From the NCBI GenBank assembly GCA_965220645.1, contig OZ244836.1, forward strand, positions 1,152,237 to 1,216,236: a DNA stretch of 64,000 nt. The letters run 5' to 3'. The notes beneath the pieces were generated by a model. It was not told where the DNA came from. It ran no database searches and saw nothing but the letters and a program-made list of their open reading frames with translations. Shown here piece by piece: positions 58,406 to 63,881 of this stretch. Every line of letters begins with the position of its first letter. Position 1 is the first letter of the stretch. A program made the position numbers and the translations under genes. This DNA is from Candidatus Aldehydirespirator sp. (GTDB lineage Bacteria; Actinomycetota; Acidimicrobiia; Acidimicrobiales; Aldehydirespiratoraceae).

Positions 58406-59086
58406 TCACGACGGGCGTAGCGAAGTCAGGTCGTCACCGGTGTTGTTCACCGTGAGGAGCATCGGACCGGCGGGGTGGTAGGCGATGGCGGTGACCGAGC
58501 ACGGCGAGATCACGATCCGCTGGAACAGGTCTAACGGCGTGCCGGCCGCGGCCGCGGCGACCGCCTTGATCACGTCGGCGTGGGACACGGCCACCACGGT
58601 CTCGCCGGCGTGGCGGGCACAGATGGCGGCCACCGCGTCGAGGGCGCGGGCTTGCATCTCGGCGAACGACTCCCCGCCGGGGAAGCGGAACCCGCTGGGA
58701 TGGCGCTGCACCGTGGTCCACTCCTTGCGCCGGCTCAGGTTCTTGAGCTTGCGCCCCGTCCACCGGCCGAAGTCGCACTCGATGAGCCCCGGGCTCCGTC
58801 GTACCCGCAGCCTGCAGGCCCGGGCGATGGGTGTGGCCGTCTCGACGGTGCGCTCCATCGGCGAGGCATAGACCGCCTTGACCCGGTCGAGCCCGGCCAG
58901 CCGCTCGGCCACCCGGCGAGCCTGTTCGGCACCCTCGGGCGCCAGGTGGAGCCCGGGAGCCCGGCCCGGAAGCACCGATCCCGTGGTCGGCGTCTGCCCG
59001 TGGCGCACGAACAGCACGACGGCGACGGCCTCGGCGCCGTCCTTGGGAGCGGTCTCGGCCGAACTGGGTGCGGAACTGGTGGCCAT
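58406..59086 (-). CDS. histidine phosphatase family protein (MSMEG_4193-type putative phosphomutase)
   Basis: Contains LFVRHGQT (RHG motif) and VAVSHADVI. The start is taken at MATSS (59086); upstream in-frame Met codons would run into the neighbouring cassette leader. Confidence 0.7.
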   Translation of the reverse strand: MATSSAPSSAETAPKDGAEAVAVVLFVRHGQTPTTGSVLPGRAPGLHLAPEGAEQARRVAERLAGLDRVKAVYASPMERTVETATPIARACRLRVRRSPGLIECDFGRWTGRKLKNLSRRKEWTTVQRHPSGFRFPGGESFAEMQARALDAVAAICARHAGETVVAVSHADVIKAVAAAAAGTPLDLFQRIVISPCSVTAIAYHPAGPMLLTVNNTGDDLTSLRPS

Positions 59087-59110
59087 GGTGCTTGTCAACG
59101 TAGCCTGATC

Positions 59111-59123
59111 GTCCGTGGAGTCC
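59111..59123. repeat. 13-bp direct repeat, left copy, bordering the PHP-ATPase cassette
   Basis: gtccgtggagtcc is identical to 63197..63209. Confidence 0.9.
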
Positions 59124-62100
59124 GCCGAGCAGCTCGAAGTCCTGAGGGTGAGACCGGTCATCGTGCCTGCTTCTCGCTCGCCGGCTCCGCACCGAAAGCT
59201 AGGATTCCGCGGGCCACCGACAGCCGAGAAGGGGCCATGAGCGCCGACGACGTCATTGCCGATGCCTTGAACCTCGGATCCGGTGCGCGTTTCATGCGTT
59301 GTGCGCTGCAAGTGAACCCGTCCCACTACCTCGGCACCTTCCAAGGCGACGAACAGGAGGACAGCGCAGCGGAGTACACGCGTGCGGTGGTGGACAAGGC
59401 TCAGGAAGTCGGTGTGTCAGTCCTAGCAATCACTGATCACAACAGCGTGCGTGACGTCTCCCGCTTCAGGACCGCCGCTCAAGGCACCGGCATCACGATC
59501 CTGCCCGGATTTGAGTTGGAGTCAACCGAGGGAATACATGTCCTGTGCGTTTACTCGCCAGACATGGCGGACCAGCAGTTGGAGAGACTTCTTGGCGAGT
59601 TCGGAGTACGAGATACTCAACCTTCGTCTACTCAATGCGCTCATGACTTCGTGACGGTCCTAGGCATGGTCCGAGAGCAGGGTGGCATCGCCGTAGCTGC
59701 TCATTCGACTGGCAAGAAGGGCCTGTTCAAGGTGCTGAGTGGTCAGGCCCGCATAAGGGCGTGGCAGTGCCCGGACCTGCTTGCTGTACAGATCCCTGGC
59801 TCGATCTCACAACTGCCTGAGGACAGTCGCCAGATTCTTGAGGATCGAAACCCCGACTACAGGCGCAGCTTCGCCGCAAGCGACAGGCAGGCAGTGGCAG
59901 CACTCAACGCCAAGGATGTGACCAAGCCCGAGGATCTAGACCACGCTTCAGCCACCTGCTGGATCAAGATGTCGGGAGATGTCACTGTCGAAGGCCTCCG
60001 ACAGGCGTTCCTTGACCCGGACTCGAGGATTCGCCTCAACAGTGATCCCGATCCCGAGGAACACTCGGAATTGGTGGCACTCGCGTGGGAGGGCGGAGGC
60101 TTCCTGGACGGCGCTGCAATACACCTCAATCAGAACTTGAATGTCATGATTGGGGGCCGCGGCACCGGGAAATCCACCGTAGTGGAGAGCCTCAGGTATG
60201 TGCTGGGACTGGAGCCGAAGGGCGCTGAAGCACTCAAGACCCACCAAGAAATCGTACGGCAGGTGATTCGGCCGGGAACGAAGTTGTCGCTACTTGTGCG
60301 CTGCTGTCGGCCGGCCGAGTTGGAATACAGGATTGAGCGCACGGTTCCCAACCCGCCGGTCGTCCGAGACCAGGACGGAAGGGTGCTTGAGCTTCTGCCA
60401 GCCGACATCCTGCCGAGGATCGAGGTCTATGGCCAGCATGAGATATCAGAGTTGACGAATAGGGAGGACCAGCTCACGTCTCTGCTGCATCGCTTCATAA
60501 GGCCGGATGAGTCGCTGAACCAACGGAAAGCGGAGGTCCGCCGCGAACTCAAGAAGACTCGGCTGGCCATCCTGCAAGCTAGCTCCGAACTTGACGACAT
60601 CGATGAGCGGCTGGCGGATCTGCCCAGACTTGAGCAGACCCTCGAACGCTTCCAGGAGGCCGGCCTTGAGGACCGTCTGCGTGATCAGAGCCTGCTCGTG
60701 CGCGAAGAGCGCATTCTGGCCGCTGTTCCCGAACGCGTGCAGGTGTTCCGCGAGGCATTGGAGACGCTCCGCCGAGAGTTGCCGGTCGACGCGACGTTCG
60801 TATCCGAGGAGGCCCTCGAGGACCTGCCGGGCGCCAGCATCCTCAGCCGTGCCAGCGAGGTGCTGGAGCAACTGAGTCGCGATCTGGAGGAGGTGGCACG
60901 ACGGCTTGGGGCAGCCCTAGAGCAAGCGGACGAGGGAATCGAGGACGTTCGCGCCCGCTGGTTGGAGCGCAAGCGCCAAGTCGACGCCGAGTACGAATCG
61001 ATCCTGCGCCAATTGCAAAAGTCCGCTGTTGATGGAGAGGAGTTCATCCGACTGCGGCGTGACATCGAGAACTTGCAGCCTCTTTCTAAGCGGCGGGCCT
61101 TGCTGGAGCGTCTCGTCGAGGAGCACATGAATCGCCGGCGTCAACTCCTGGTCGAATGGGAAGATGTCAAGGCCGAAGAGTTCCGGGGCCTCAGTCGGGC
61201 TGCAGACAGGGTCAGCACGGCGTTGAAGGATCGAGTACACGTCGACGTCTACAGCGCTGGTGATCGCAAGCCGCTCTTCGATCTCTTCACCAAAGAGATC
61301 GGAGGCCGCCTCTCAGAGACCGTCGCGATACTGGAGCGAGTCGAGGACATGTCACTACCGGAGTTAGTTGACGCGTGCCGGAAGGACACCGACAGCGTCA
61401 AGAAGAAGTATGGCCTGCCGTCCAAGCAGGCGGAGCGTTTGGCAGGGGCCTCTGCGAGCACCCTGATGCAGATCGAGGAGCTTGAGTTGTCTTCGACGAC
61501 GGATCTCAAGCTAAACACGGCCGCAGCAGGCGAGCGGCCGGATTGGAACGCGCTCAAACAGCTGTCCAAGGGACAGAAGGCGACTGCTGTGCTCCTCCTG
61601 CTGCTGCTGGAGTCTGACGCCCCCCTAGTGATCGACCAGCCGGAGGATGACCTTGACAACCGTTTCATTACCGAGGGAGTTGTGCCTCGGATCCGCGAGG
61701 AGAAGCGTCGTCGGCAGTTCGTATTCTCGACCCACAACGCCAATATTCCGGTCTTGGGTGATGCTGAGTTGATACTGGGACTACACGCCTCAGGCGAAGC
61801 CTTCGGTGGAAGGGCATTCATCTCGTCCGAGCACATGGGCTCGATCGACTCACCGTCTGTGAGGGCACTGGTAGAGGAGGTCTTGGAGGGCGGCAAGACT
61901 GCCTTCGAGACTCGACGCCGCAAATACGGATTCTGAGGCTGCTCGTGATCCGACCGCCCCAGCCCGTCGCCTGTCAATGAACCGCACCGATCTGGTCGCG
62001 GCAATAGCCGGAGGCGAGAACTCGCGAGTTGAGTTCAAACGTGACGACATCAAACCCGTAGAGCTCGCCGAGCGCATGGCAGGATTGCTGAATCTTGAGG

Positions 62101-63196
62101 GTGGCCACCTACTGCTAGGCGTCGAGGACGATGGCACGGTGTCGGGTCTCGCTCGCAGTCCCGGCAAGGCCGAAGAGTGGGTGATGCAGGCTGCCAGGGA
62201 CAACCTGCAGCCAGCTGCGATACCCGTCTGGCAGGAGCTGGAGTGGGCGCCGGGGAGGCGGGTGGGAGTGGTGACCCTTCCGCCGAACGCCCCCGACAAG
62301 CCTTACAAGGCCAGGAGGGGGAACCACTGGGTAACAAAGGTGCGGGTCGGCACCATCACGCGGGACGCGACCCGAGAGGAGGAGCAGCGGCTCTATCAGC
62401 AGTCCGGGGGCCTCCGCTACGGCCTCAAACCGGTCACCGGATCTGGGCTCCACGACCTGGACCATCGTCGCCTGCGGGACTATTTTGCCCGCATTCGAGG
62501 GGACACCAGCGTGCCGACGCCGGGTTCGGACGAGTGGGGGCGACTGCTCTGCAACCTGGAGCTTGCTATCGAGGCGGCCGGGCATACTTCCGCCACGATT
62601 GACGGAATGCTGCTGTTTGGTTCCAACTCCGGGAAGTTCGTGCCGCAGTCGGGTATCCGGGCTATCTGCTACCAAGGGCTGGAGCCAGACTACGGGGCAC
62701 GCTCCGACGAGGATCTCAAGGGGCCGTTGGTTCCGCTCGGCACATCGGACGGCTCGATCGCCGAGACCGGGGTTGTGGACAGGGCAGTGGACTTTGTGCG
62801 CCGCAACTCCGGCGTCTCGTCCCGATTGGAGGGCGCCCGGAGGATTGACCGTCCCGACTACCCTGAGGACGCCATTCGTGAAGTAGTTGTGAACGCGCTT
62901 GCGCATCGCGATTACAGCATTGAAGGTACCGACGCGATGCTGTCCATCTTTTCGGACCGTCTTGAGATCCAGAGCCCGGGCAGGCTGCCCAACACGATCA
63001 CGGTGGAGGGGATGCGGTCGGGCGCTCGCTACGCCAGGAACCAGACTCTGGTGAACATCATGCGCGACTATGGCTACGTCGACGCCCGCGGCATGGGAAT
63101 CCGTAACAAGGTCATACCGAGCATGGCGGCACACAACGGCACCGAGCCTGAGTTCGTTGAGGACGACTATCGCTTTCTTGTCCGACTTTGGAAGTA
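59124..63196. mobile_element. putative horizontally acquired two-gene islet (candidate defence cassette) between 13-bp direct repeats
   Basis: G+C is visibly lower than in the flanks. The islet interrupts core genes and is flanked by a perfect 13-mer. No recombinase gene is present. Confidence 0.4.
59237..61936 (+). CDS. PHP-domain phosphoesterase fused to an SMC/RecN/SbcC-like coiled-coil ABC-type ATPase (PplA-like)
   Basis: PHP motifs are AITDHNS, GFELES, GIHVLCVY and AVAAHSTG. ATPase motifs are Walker A GGRGTGKST (60152..60178), Q-loop VYGQHE, signature-like LSKGQKATAV, Walker B LVIDQPEDDLD (61622..61657) and H-loop FSTHNANI. About 270 aa of heptad-rich insert separates the ATPase halves. 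Confidence 0.8.
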   Translation: MSADDVIADALNLGSGARFMRCALQVNPSHYLGTFQGDEQEDSAAEYTRAVVDKAQEVGVSVLAITDHNSVRDVSRFRTAAQGTGITILPGFELESTEGIHVLCVYSPDMADQQLERLLGEFGVRDTQPSSTQCAHDFVTVLGMVREQGGIAVAAHSTGKKGLFKVLSGQARIRAWQCPDLLAVQIPGSISQLPEDSRQILEDRNPDYRRSFAASDRQAVAALNAKDVTKPEDLDHASATCWIKMSGDVTVEGLRQAFLDPDSRIRLNSDPDPEEHSELVALAWEGGGFLDGAAIHLNQNLNVMIGGRGTGKSTVVESLRYVLGLEPKGAEALKTHQEIVRQVIRPGTKLSLLVRCCRPAELEYRIERTVPNPPVVRDQDGRVLELLPADILPRIEVYGQHEISELTNREDQLTSLLHRFIRPDESLNQRKAEVRRELKKTRLAILQASSELDDIDERLADLPRLEQTLERFQEAGLEDRLRDQSLLVREERILAAVPERVQVFREALETLRRELPVDATFVSEEALEDLPGASILSRASEVLEQLSRDLEEVARRLGAALEQADEGIEDVRARWLERKRQVDAEYESILRQLQKSAVDGEEFIRLRRDIENLQPLSKRRALLERLVEEHMNRRRQLLVEWEDVKAEEFRGLSRAADRVSTALKDRVHVDVYSAGDRKPLFDLFTKEIGGRLSETVAILERVEDMSLPELVDACRKDTDSVKKKYGLPSKQAERLAGASASTLMQIEELELSSTTDLKLNTAAAGERPDWNALKQLSKGQKATAVLLLLLLESDAPLVIDQPEDDLDNRFITEGVVPRIREEKRRRQFVFSTHNANIPVLGDAELILGLHASGEAFGGRAFISSEHMGSIDSPSVRALVEEVLEGGKTAFETRRRKYGF

Positions 63197-63197
63197 G
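61977..63197 (+). CDS. AlbA_2 (Schlafen-like divergent AAA) + HATPase_c_4 domain protein (COG2865 architecture)
   Basis: N-terminal ENSRVEFKRDD...LLNLEGGHLLLGVEDDGTVSGL. C-terminal EDAIREVVVNALAHRDYS...LEIQSPGRLPNTIT...RYARNQTLVNIM. Confidence 0.8.
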   Translation: MNRTDLVAAIAGGENSRVEFKRDDIKPVELAERMAGLLNLEGGHLLLGVEDDGTVSGLARSPGKAEEWVMQAARDNLQPAAIPVWQELEWAPGRRVGVVTLPPNAPDKPYKARRGNHWVTKVRVGTITRDATREEEQRLYQQSGGLRYGLKPVTGSGLHDLDHRRLRDYFARIRGDTSVPTPGSDEWGRLLCNLELAIEAAGHTSATIDGMLLFGSNSGKFVPQSGIRAICYQGLEPDYGARSDEDLKGPLVPLGTSDGSIAETGVVDRAVDFVRRNSGVSSRLEGARRIDRPDYPEDAIREVVVNALAHRDYSIEGTDAMLSIFSDRLEIQSPGRLPNTITVEGMRSGARYARNQTLVNIMRDYGYVDARGMGIRNKVIPSMAAHNGTEPEFVEDDYRFLVRLWK

Positions 63198-63209
63198 TCC
63201 GTGGAGTCC
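63197..63209. repeat. 13-bp direct repeat, right copy; contains the udgB GTG start
   Basis: gtccgtggagtcc is identical to 59111..59123. Its first base is the last base of the upstream stop codon. Confidence 0.9.
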
Positions 63210-63881
63210 CCCGGCTCGCGCCGCATCCTTGCCGAGATTGCCTCGGAGGTGACCGCGTGCCGGGCCTGCCCCCGGTTGGTGGATTGGCGCGAGCAGGTCG
63301 GGCGCACCAAGCGGGCCGCCTACCGTGACGAGGAGTATTGGGCCCGCGGCGTCCCCGGCTTCGGCGATCCCGACGCCCACCTGGTGGTGGTGGGGCTGGC
63401 GCCCGCGGCCCACGGGGCCAACCGCACCGGCCGGATGTTCACCGGCGACCGCTCGGGGGACTGGCTGTACCGGGCCTTGCACCGCGCCGGCTACGCCAAC
63501 CAGGCTCGCTCCGCCCACCGAGGCGACGGGCTGACCCTGGCCGGCGCGTGGATTACCGCGCCAGTGAAGTGCGCTCCTCCGGACAACAAGCCGTCGCCGG
63601 CCGAGCGTGATCGCTGCATGCCGTTCATGCGGCGCGAGCTGGAGGCGCTCAAGGCGCTCCGGGTGGTGGTCGTGCTCGGCGGCTTCGCCCACCAGGTGGT
63701 GTGGCGCGAGCTGGGCTCGGGGTCTCGCCCCCGCTTCGCTCACGGTGCCGAGGCCCCCCTGCCCGGCGACCGGACGCTGCTGTGCAGCTACCACCCCAGC
63801 CAGCAGAACACCTTCACCGGCCGCCTCACCGAGCCCATGCTCGACGCCGTGTTCGCCCGGGCCAGAGAACTGGGCGGCTAA
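63201..63881 (+). CDS. udgB: uracil-DNA glycosylase, family 5 (UdgB-like), Fe-S type
   Basis: Contains CRACPRL (Fe-S Cys), motif [23 protein letters not shown] (GLAPA rather than the family-4 GEAPG), and motif B SYHPSQQN. Confidence 0.8.

Follow-up and report, generated by a model that had tools for sequence, protein, structure and literature searches.

A TrlF–TrlG gene pair between two core genes of an uncultured actinobacterium: a candidate anti-phage cassette

What is a two-gene block of low G+C content, encoding a PHP-ATPase and a Schlafen-type protein, doing between two core genes of an actinobacterium? The block lies in a 64,000-nt stretch of contig OZ244836.1 (Candidatus Aldehydirespirator sp., assembly GCA_965220645.1, positions 1,152,237 to 1,216,236), hereafter the window, and an earlier note made from the sequence had put it forward as an undescribed anti-phage defence system. 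Our analysis confirmed the two same-strand ORFs, 40 nt apart, that the note had described:

59237..61936, + strand: ORF1 (TrlF), 899 aa
61977..63197, + strand: ORF2 (TrlG), 406 aa, 40 nt 3′ of ORF1

Together, they almost certainly represent the TrlF–TrlG module first named in Photorhabdus, and comparative evidence suggests that this module probably acts as an abortive-infection-type defence against phage or invading DNA.

The identity of ORF1 follows from NCBIfam model NF045780, ‘TrlF family AAA-like ATPase’, which it passes at equivalog level (523.5 bits, cutoff 350), with residues 16–898 covering profile positions 2–944 of 944. The family is named after the Photorhabdus trl locus, described in P. 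laumondii as the trlR-trlF-trlG ‘temperature restriction locus’ (TRL) that stops growth at 36 °C (Hapeshi 2020, bioRxiv 10.1101/2020.06.02.129163 = PMC7554251). In that locus, TrlF is encoded by the large upstream gene, annotated ‘histidinol phosphatase’, and TrlG, formerly mis-annotated as ‘recG’, has an AlbA_2 domain at 14–128 and a HATPase_c_4 domain at 298–365 (PMC7554251). The operon is induced by a temperature up-shift (28–30 °C to 36–37 °C), trlG is needed for the arrest, and more than 30 independent temperature-tolerant mutants all carried single-nucleotide polymorphisms, stop codons or an IS66 insertion in trlG (PMC7554251). The same study found the operon to be sporadic in Proteobacteria, the closest relative of TrlG being that of Vibrio parahaemolyticus (PMC7554251). 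On a V. parahaemolyticus plasmid, the NCBI Prokaryotic Genome Annotation Pipeline (PGAP) names TrlF followed by an ‘RNA-binding domain-containing protein’, and the two proteins are full-length collinear with ORF1 (31 % identity) and ORF2 (42 % identity, E = 1e-102). The statement in the earlier note that no described system pairs such genes has therefore to be withdrawn, as the same pair was described in 2020 as trlF-trlG with a trlG growth-arrest phenotype (PMC7554251). Nor is the pair new to annotation, since ORF1 passes a curated NCBI model and PGAP annotations of such pairs exist for E. coli, Citrobacter and Vibrio. Both the pair and its families thus have names already; what is new is the proposed anti-phage role, a hypothesis that we consider well supported.

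ORF1 is also not simply the single-gene system Ppl, an outcome that would have counted against the earlier note. The Ppl model NF042955 returned 188.1 bits in two stretches (cutoff 1000), the PADLOC Ppl model (PDLC02208) gave a partial match of 137 bits, and the Ppl hidden Markov models (HMMs) match both ends of ORF1 (E = 2e-55 and 1.7e-40); the Spaf_1101 family of NCBIfam scored 170 bits against a cutoff of 475. As the Ppl scores fall far below cutoff and the TrlF model is passed end to end, ORF1 is a paralogue of Ppl, not Ppl itself. More than 4,000 homologues of ORF1 were found. No Ppl or TrlF structure was returned by a PDB sequence search, in which ORF1 matched generic ABC signature regions only.

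ORF1 can be divided into four parts:

59282..60046, + strand: PHP-like phosphoesterase domain, aa ~16–270 (Pfam, alignment with PHP structures, fold and conservation)
60068..60496, + strand: N-lobe of the ATPase head, aa ~278–420, with Walker A GGRGTGKST (K312) and Q-loop GQHE (Q400)
60509..61222, + strand: long antiparallel helices forming a coiled-coil arm, aa ~425–662 (AlphaFold2 secondary structure and fold matches)
61235..61933, + strand: helical insert and C-lobe of the ATPase head, aa ~667–899 (AAA_21 and invariant columns)

Pfam upheld the domain calls that had been made for both proteins (PHP, ABC/SMC-type ATPase, AlbA_2 and HATPase_c_4), with the qualification that the PHP call is marginal and SMC_N sub-threshold: PHP scored 28.2 bits against a gathering threshold of 26.4 and over residues 48–97 only, AAA_21 scored 38.2 against 27 (residues 774–837), AAA_23 27.1 against 27 and SMC_N 33.7 bits, under its threshold of 40. 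The C-lobe carries a signature LSKGQKA (776–782), Walker B DQPEDDLD (800–807) and H-loop THNANIPV (832–839). The AlphaFold2 (AF2) model of ORF1 is good (mean predicted local distance difference test (pLDDT) score of 80) and displays an α/β N-domain, a split ATPase head and a helical insert, with helices at 425–459, 462–474, 477–514, 533–594 and 600–662, so that ~240 residues lie between the ATPase halves. Foldseek matched the ATPase and coiled coil to the heads of JetC, Smc, MukB, Rad50, RecN, RecF and LmuB, and the N-domain to the PHP enzymes RNase AM, BAD_1165, EndoQ and Pol III α.

Conservation was assessed in alignments of close homologues (18 and 52 sequences) and in an alignment of 71 pairs from different species, and all motifs quoted in the earlier note were present in the window and conserved in these alignments. 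The Walker A, Q-loop, signature, Walker B and H-loop motifs of TrlF are invariant or nearly so in close homologues and at least 80–95 % conserved across the 71 pairs, giving the consensus GGRGxGKST, GQHE, LSxGQKA, DQPEDDLD and THNANIPV. The PHP residues T66/H68, G91-F92-E93, H101 and A154-A155-H156 are conserved to the same degree, and the conserved PHP set comprises CALQVNP (22–28), TDH68, GFE93, H101, AAH156 and NAxD227, in which PHP motifs II–III align with those of the solved PHP enzymes 3e0f, 7ug9 and 2yb1.

ORF2 has two recognizable domains:

62016..62330, + strand: Schlafen/AlbA_2 nuclease domain, aa 14–118 (PF04326)
62772..63188, + strand: GHKL (HATPase_c_4) ATPase domain, aa ~266–404 (PF13749, conservation and fold)

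The SLFN_AlbA_2 model PF04326 scored 46.5 bits (threshold 25.3) and the HATPase_c_4 model PF13749 75 bits, and Pfam detected no helix-turn-helix (HTH) in a protein that ends at its GHKL domain, in agreement with the absence of a winged HTH reported previously. The nuclease domain carries a Schlafen motif, E14-NSRV-E19-F-K21, of the Ex4(E/D)xK type that has been defined as catalytic in human and bacterial Schlafens (PMC13056530), together with an acidic cluster E50-D51-D52 (LLGVEDD), and this motif is at least 80–95 % conserved across 71 homologues. The GHKL N-box reads R301-E302...N306...H310-R311-D312-Y313 and is accompanied by SPGRLPN and GMG; E302 and N306 are invariant. Judged from the motif rather than from a superposition, these two residues would correspond to E314/N318 of RzAgo, in whose homologous GHKL domain roles have been assigned to the E and N residues (bioRxiv 10.64898/2026.05.29.728809). 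Fold searches with ORF2 retrieved bacterial AlbA_2 structures (3lmm/2kyy), the nuclease domains of human SLFN5/11/12/13/14, the SAMD9 tRNase and GHKL kinases, and 3lmm was the sole match in a PDB sequence search. PADLOC pAgo models match ORF2 over its AlbA_2 and GHKL region, and PADLOC v2.0.0 holds no model for the TrlG partner beyond these pAgo-fusion models. By sequence, ORF2 is a TrlG-type ‘Schlatpase’ (a Schlafen/AlbA_2 nuclease joined to a GHKL ATPase) and a predicted tRNase.

A pattern scan with one genome per species recovered TrlF relatives in at least 521 species, and the best 80 of these loci (50–87 % identity) were analysed. They come from Acidimicrobiia, Chloroflexota, Latescibacterota, Binatia, Nitrospirota, Gemmatimonadota, Acidobacteriota, Verrucomicrobiota, Planctomycetota, Myxococcota, Bdellovibrionota, Desulfobacterota, Alpha-, Beta- and Gammaproteobacteria and one ANME-1 archaeon (L076), and 63 % identity is seen across phyla. 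A TrlG homologue lies directly 3′ of TrlF on the same strand in 74 of the 77 loci with enough downstream sequence, and in 65 of these 74 the spacer measures 2–19 nt, most often 9. Three loci depart from this arrangement: L041 has a partial gene and a gap of 2.3 kb, L066 has a divergent AlbA_2-type gene (23 % identical) and L081 has none. In the reverse direction, three of four sampled close relatives of ORF2 have TrlF directly upstream, the fourth (L092) being TrlG alone. Pairwise-identity matrices of TrlF and TrlG are correlated (mirror-tree, 71 pairs: r = 0.68, whereas 500 label permutations gave no value above 0.23), indicating that the two genes are inherited and diverge as a unit. ORF2 is thus no passenger, and the pair is a near-obligate module in the clade of ORF1.

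TrlF and TrlG each have thousands of homologues, and their top-match lists overlap in many contigs. Among plasmids, 233 records (153 of them conjugative) carry TrlF-family genes at 27–38 % identity, only ~4 of which have a TrlG neighbour; since these distant genes are mostly solo, pairing is clade-specific. A distant pair (24 % and 26 % identity) was found on one viral contig, phage and viral collections otherwise yielding only distant relatives (23–29 % identity), and in E. coli the system was found in 46 of 5,426 genomes (~0.8 % of complete genomes). Some loci, namely L006, L012 (two ORF2-like genes each) and L039, possess a second TrlG-like gene besides the one directly 3′ of TrlF. Many of the closest homologues derive from sponge symbionts (Ca. 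Poriferisodalis, Ca. Poriferisocius) and other uncultured metagenome-assembled genomes (MAGs), among them L009, L018, L020, L041, L054 and numerous MAG loci from ENA, and TrlF–TrlG looks especially common in symbiont-rich or high-density communities, sampling bias not being allowed for.

How did the pair come to lie where it does? Its surroundings are as follows:

58406..59086, − strand: left flank, MSMEG_4193-family putative phosphomutase (His_Phos_1), core gene (Pfam, contig gene call and homologue naming)
59111..59127: left 17-bp direct repeat GTCCGTGGAGTCCGCCG, duplicating the start region of the uracil-DNA glycosylase (UDG) gene; left insert junction
59128..59236, + strand: 109-bp cassette leader 5′ of TrlF, with a putative Shine–Dalgarno sequence GAGAAGGGG and no counterpart in empty sites
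63197..63213: right 17-bp direct repeat GTCCGTGGAGTCCCCCG, beginning at the last base of the TrlG stop and including the UDG GTG at 63201
63201..63881, + strand: right flank, UDG-family gene (PF03167), core gene, start GTG 63201

Four relatives (L087, L088, L089 and L090, all on Mb-scale contigs, with phosphomutases 84–88 % identical) have an empty site, in which the phosphomutase and UDG genes are adjacent and divergent, 28–225 bp apart, within an otherwise identical gene order, which directly confirms that a core-gene junction has been interrupted by the cassette. In the junction alignment, the empty site reads …CAACGTAGCCTGATC-GTCCGTGGAGTCCCCCG-GCTCGCGCC… (L087:6940-7045). The two repeat copies in the window are 16/17 identical and flank a 4,086-bp insert; the four empty sites have one copy (the 17-mer occurs once in L087 and L089), and empty-site homology ends right after the left copy. 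The insert contains the 109-bp leader, TrlF, 40 nt and TrlG only, with no recombinase inside it, and the stretch 59128–63196 is a horizontally acquired, integrase-less two-gene cassette. G+C content is 0.58–0.65 over 59250–63000 and 0.67–0.74 in the flanks, which, with the four empty sites, bears out the earlier description of a low-G+C block interrupting core genes.

Two further genomes, L002 (Ca. Aldehydirespirator sp., TrlF 87 % identical) and L091, carry the pair at the same site. L091 was considered as a decay stage with a truncated TrlF, a view that was rejected as its TrlF is an intact 894-codon gene with a GTG start and the 557-aa call an artefact. The only locus with TrlG truly alone at the phosphomutase/UDG site is L092 (Acidimicrobiia; TrlG 73 % identical to ORF2, without a TrlF remnant, L092:4450-6221), in which a tandemly duplicated ~37-bp segment CTGACAACTGGCTGCGATCCATGCCAAGGGTCGGCCC lies upstream of TrlG. 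Flanking direct repeats exceeding those of all control windows (maximum 14) were also detected at other loci (L008, 54 bp; L039, 18 bp; L015, 16 bp), and L007 is a further case of flanking repeats. In L008, one copy falls within the 3′ end of a neighbouring helicase gene, ~237 nt before TrlF, and the other follows TrlG by ~41 nt. These repeats suggest cassette insertion with target duplication of variable length, perhaps as a general mode.

Several features of the locus itself merit comment. The reading frame of ORF1, mechanically called, reaches upstream to a GTG at 58580; however, the gene call on the source contig (a 3.6-Mb metagenome contig from ENA) is the identical 899-aa form and homologues align from residue 1, so that the ATG at 59237 is the real start. 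The phosphomutase probably starts at the ATG at ~59086 (226-aa form) rather than at the longer ORF start: its homologues are 226 aa long with the same NCBI name, and the empty-site alignment displays a conserved CAT start. Both its longest ORF (58406–59344, − strand) and a 251-aa gene call over-extend the 5′ end into the insert junction. The cassette leader contains the tail of a 41-codon remnant ORF (59115–59240), whose TGA overlaps the TrlF ATG; a role as a translational-coupling leader peptide was rejected because the equivalent region of L002 stops earlier and in another frame, and the remnant is probably non-functional. The UDG gene now begins 3 nt past the TrlG stop, and the cassette appears to share an operon with it; scans for sigma-70 promoters and terminators returned nothing above chance. 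In L002 (L002:11930-12060), the TrlG stop TAG has become TCG and TrlG reads in frame into the UDG gene, which represents either a natural fusion or an assembly error. A few kb past UDG, the empty-site relatives carry a variable set of DDE transposase, PIN/PhdYeFM toxin-antitoxin and AAA_14/DUF4143 genes, and the neighbourhood is therefore a local accessory-gene hotspot:

L087:885-2207 and L088:1694-2331: accessory genes beyond UDG, with AAA_14-DUF4143 in L088/L090

The genomic surroundings in other genomes provide an argument for defence. At 17 of the 80 loci (L007, L008, L012, L014, L015, L022, L025, L028, L033, L034, L039, L066, L070, L073, L078, L079 and L043), genes for a DrmD-like SNF2 helicase, a DUF1156 methyltransferase and a DUF499 ATPase form a cluster in which the pair is nested in the same orientation. 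DUF1156 and DUF499 bear ‘anti-phage-associated’ names in NCBIfam, with scores here below cutoff. In these clusters the pair may follow the helicase, DUF1156 or DUF499, and it behaves like an exchangeable accessory module of a DUF1156/DUF499/helicase restriction-like system. Related loci are found in other settings of this kind. On V. parahaemolyticus pLH80-1, the pair is placed within a BREX-1 operon between pglX and pglZ; on a Citrobacter IncC plasmid, it is flanked by hsdS and hsdR of a type I restriction–modification (R-M) system; in E. coli ET896, it abuts a BREX-1 system; and at L094, it adjoins AbiEii. Intact pairs occupy NZ_CP068629.1, 3981–7894 (pLH80-1), NZ_CP026233.1, 189353–193266 (Citrobacter pCFR-0b27) and NZ_CP100883.1, ~4179295–4183440 (E. 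coli ET896). E. coli cq9 encodes a solo TrlF after brxL in an SXT-like integrative and conjugative element (ICE). For comparison, the number of defence genes within ±10 kb has been put at ~0.13–0.19 near ribosomal genes vs 1.9 for bacterial Schlafens (PMC13056530). The defence-islet context invoked in the earlier note was accordingly borne out in part: some relatives are embedded in, or adjoin, BREX-1, type I R-M and DUF1156/DUF499/DrmD-like loci, whereas the neighbours of the cassette in the window, and most immediate neighbours in other genomes, are housekeeping genes.

If the module does act in defence, its parts suggest a way of working, which we put forward tentatively and at clearly less than even confidence. 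TrlF would be a dimerizing SMC/Rad50-like ATPase that, with its coiled-coil arm and PHP domain, senses DNA and nucleotide state and is a probable nuclease on foreign DNA ends. TrlG, a putative Schlafen (Ex4ExK) metal-dependent RNase with a GHKL ATPase, would be the growth-arresting effector; it would be switched on by nucleotide-dependent oligomerization and cut tRNA or other RNA, so that translation stops. The heat arrest of Photorhabdus might then represent auto-activation or over-expression of the TrlG effector. We infer phage infection as the natural trigger, signalling from TrlF to TrlG, a tRNA target and an active, non-canonical PHP; genomic linkage is the sole ground from which we infer functional coupling of the two proteins. 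The repeated nesting in restriction-type operons suggests, by analogy with PrrC of the prr locus, that the pair may act as a guard.

A broader version, also conditional and only a little short of an even chance in our judgement, holds that TrlF–TrlG is a very widespread two-component abortive-infection (Abi) system, present in at least 521 species of a dozen phyla and in one archaeon, in which an SMC-like PHP nuclease licenses a Schlafen-GHKL tRNase. The nuclease would detect the ends of foreign DNA, a depletion of nucleotides or the inhibition of a restriction system resident in the same host, and the ‘temperature restriction’ of Photorhabdus would be auto-immunity of the system. As it spreads, the integrase-less cassette would duplicate its target (17 bp here, 54 bp in L008), and BREX, type I R-M or DUF1156 operons would often be where it inserts.

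A number of observations weigh against a defence function, or against the proposed division of labour. The cassette of the window lies outside any defence island, its neighbours being housekeeping genes, and the immediate neighbours in other genomes likewise include a few R-M or defence genes and many housekeeping ones (125 neighbours scanned with HMMs, with no matched control). The sole reported phenotype is temperature restriction; the Photorhabdus paper does not treat trl as defence, and the word ‘phage’ is absent from it (PMC7554251). Our literature search returned only that 2020 paper, and no proposal or phage-challenge test of TrlF–TrlG as a defence system. Neither of the two Slfn-HisKinase proteins assayed on their own in E. 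coli was protective (PMC13056530). All of the 30+ Photorhabdus suppressors map to trlG and none to the twice-larger trlF, and L092 has TrlG only; both facts argue against TrlF as an obligatory antitoxin and against a strict need for it in TrlG toxicity, and it may be dispensable for TrlG activity. The PHP domain of TrlF has no recognizable N-terminal HxH (motif I) and carries an invariant CALQVNP instead throughout the clade; because the canonical motif is replaced, nuclease activity is uncertain, catalysis being plausible but not assured. Finally, the AF2 model of ORF2 is of only moderate confidence (pLDDT 66).

Three other explanations of the pair have to be weighed against a coupled defence module. 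TrlF and TrlG may be two autonomous single-gene systems that travel together without functional communication, namely, a Ppl-like PHP-ATPase exonuclease and a self-switched Schlatpase. Ppl does work as a single gene (PMC12904381), Schlatpases are mostly stand-alone proteins (bioRxiv 10.64898/2026.05.29.728809), the TrlF-family genes of plasmids are mostly solo, with ~4 of 233 having a TrlG neighbour, and both the TrlG-only L092 and the restriction of the Photorhabdus suppressors to trlG would fit. Such independence nonetheless seems improbable to us, given that linkage at 74 of 77 loci in a fixed order with a ~9-nt spacer goes far beyond the loose clustering of defence islands, that the distance matrices correlate, that both genes insert as one unit and that the Slfn-HisKinase proteins gave no defence alone in the one available test (PMC13056530).

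Alternatively, the pair may not be antiviral at all but a growth brake that responds to stress or temperature, or a selfish module of the addiction type. It would then halt replication or translation when heat or another stress acts, as has been proposed for Photorhabdus. Such a role would accommodate the only experimental phenotype, a heat-induced operon with trlG-dependent arrest (PMC7554251), and the position of the window cassette among housekeeping genes, apparently in an operon with UDG. We regard this as unlikely, as the pair is patchy in close relatives, with occupied and empty sites in otherwise syntenic genomes, is present in only 46 of 5,426 E. coli genomes and occurs on conjugative plasmids and ICEs and within BREX, type I R-M and DUF1156 loci, a pattern typical of defence genes and not of physiological regulators; moreover, heat arrest would be expected from an auto-activated abortive-infection effector. 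A role in DNA repair, as a fused analogue of SbcCD or Mre11-Rad50 with an AlbA_2 DNA/RNA-binding accessory protein or regulator, is very improbable. TrlF does fold like the heads of Rad50, RecN, RecF and SMC and the PHP domains of EndoQ and Pol III, PGAP attaches the gene ontology term ‘double-strand break repair’ (inferred from electronic annotation) to it and the cassette adjoins the UDG gene. However, the empty sites carry UDG without TrlF–TrlG, so this adjacency arose by accident when the cassette inserted; sporadic occurrence, carriage on plasmids, low G+C content and nesting in restriction operons are not usual for repair genes; and TrlG retains the Schlafen RNase catalytic motif and has no HTH.

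With the defence reading preferred, the wider meaning of the locus can be stated briefly. The window adds a new member and its context rather than a new principle, and its practical value is modest; the exact comparison of empty and occupied sites documents cleanly, in a natural case, how a defence-type cassette landed between a pair of core genes and captured the promoter region of both. If TrlF–TrlG is a defence system, it would be a widely distributed one, since hundreds of species, conjugative plasmids and ~0.8 % of complete E. coli genomes carry it. Such a system would unite the Ppl-type PHP-ATPases and the Schlafen tRNases (homologues of human antiviral SLFN/SAMD9), each recently shown to act in immunity, show how the commonest and so far phenotype-less class of bacterial Schlafens (Slfn-GHKL) is controlled and supply a mechanistic reason why some Photorhabdus cannot grow at human body temperature. 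Were the broader two-component Abi version to hold, TrlG would be the first Schlafen effector controlled by a separately encoded SMC-type sensor.

Comparison with known systems places the pair among several families. The best structural matches of the ORF1 ATPase and coiled coil are JetC, Smc and LmuB, and the concept of an SMC-like DNA sensor coupled to a nuclease is shared with Lamassu and Wadjet. The ORF1 arm is, however, much shorter (~240 aa), its nuclease is fused in cis and its partner is RNase-type; LmuB HMM matches are weak (≤33 bits), and no kleisin, LmuA/LmuC or JetA/B/D partner lies beside ORF1, where the neighbours are phosphomutase and UDG, so that the pair does not belong to either system. 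PARIS (AriA/AriB), PrrC and RloC follow the same logic, in that a tRNA-cutting effector is either fused to an ABC/Rad50-like ATPase or paired with one, and the ORF1 C-lobe matches AAA_21/AriA models with 32–38 bits. In contrast to these systems, the effector here has a Schlafen fold, being neither Toprim nor the PrrC anticodon nuclease, and the ATPase carries its own PHP; Pfam found no Toprim domain in ORF1 or ORF2, which places them outside PARIS and OLD, and at the sequence level the pair showed no membership of the PARIS, PrrC or RloC systems. A PARIS-like antitoxin model, in which TrlF sequesters a toxic TrlG, is disfavoured since L092 keeps an intact TrlG without TrlF. In the prr locus, prrC is located between hsdS and hsdR, which is also the position of the Citrobacter TrlF–TrlG homologue. 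PARIS, Lamassu and Wadjet are analogies only.

Ppl (Gao et al. 2020) stands closer to ORF1, with which it shares an N-terminal PHP, an ABC/SMC-like ATPase and a length of ~880–900 aa. E. coli Ppl is a 3′–5′ single-stranded DNA exonuclease that is inhibited by nucleoside triphosphates (NTPs) at its PHP and NTPase domains and activated by nucleotide depletion plus 3′-OH ends (PMC12904381), and a shared NTP-gated, DNA-end-sensing nuclease mechanism is plausible for ORF1. The two differ in that Ppl is a single-gene system and the ORF1 clade has a near-obligate Schlafen-GHKL partner; on this ground and on score, ORF1 falls outside Ppl.

At the sequence level, ORF2 belongs to the prokaryotic Schlafens (pSlfn) and Schlatpases, with which it shares an AlbA_2 nuclease carrying Ex4(E/D)xK and fused to PF13749. 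Bacterial Schlafens are Mn-dependent tRNases with abortive-type phage defence, and the fusion to a PF13749 GHKL or ‘HisKinase’ domain is the commonest pSlfn architecture (34 %; PMC13056530). The AlbA_2 + GHKL unit has been named ‘Schlatpase’, and the active Schlafen nuclease of SLFN-pAgo is built by tetramerization, which is driven by ATP bound to the PF13749 GHKL domain (bioRxiv 10.64898/2026.05.29.728809). The validated examples have a fused sensor (Ig-like, DUF262 or pAgo core), whereas ORF2 has none, so any sensor of ORF2 would be the separately encoded TrlF.

The closest counterpart is the Photorhabdus TRL, which we compared by its published description, taking sequence identity from the Vibrio pair instead. 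The host here is an actinobacterium (Acidimicrobiia) of an uncultured MAG lineage, whereas Photorhabdus is a gammaproteobacterium, and trlR, which encodes a putative transcription factor of ~79 aa, has no counterpart upstream of ORF1; no trlR-like gene was conserved there or across the 80 loci. In E. coli ET896, a 62-aa hypothetical ORF that may be a TrlR counterpart lies just 5′ of TrlF (L095:7742-7930) and is absent from the window. The trlF-trlG core of the operon, by contrast, is present: ORF1 passes the TrlF model, ORF2 has the domain architecture of TrlG, a similar size and a position immediately 3′, and the distribution is sporadic and reminiscent of horizontal transfer in both.

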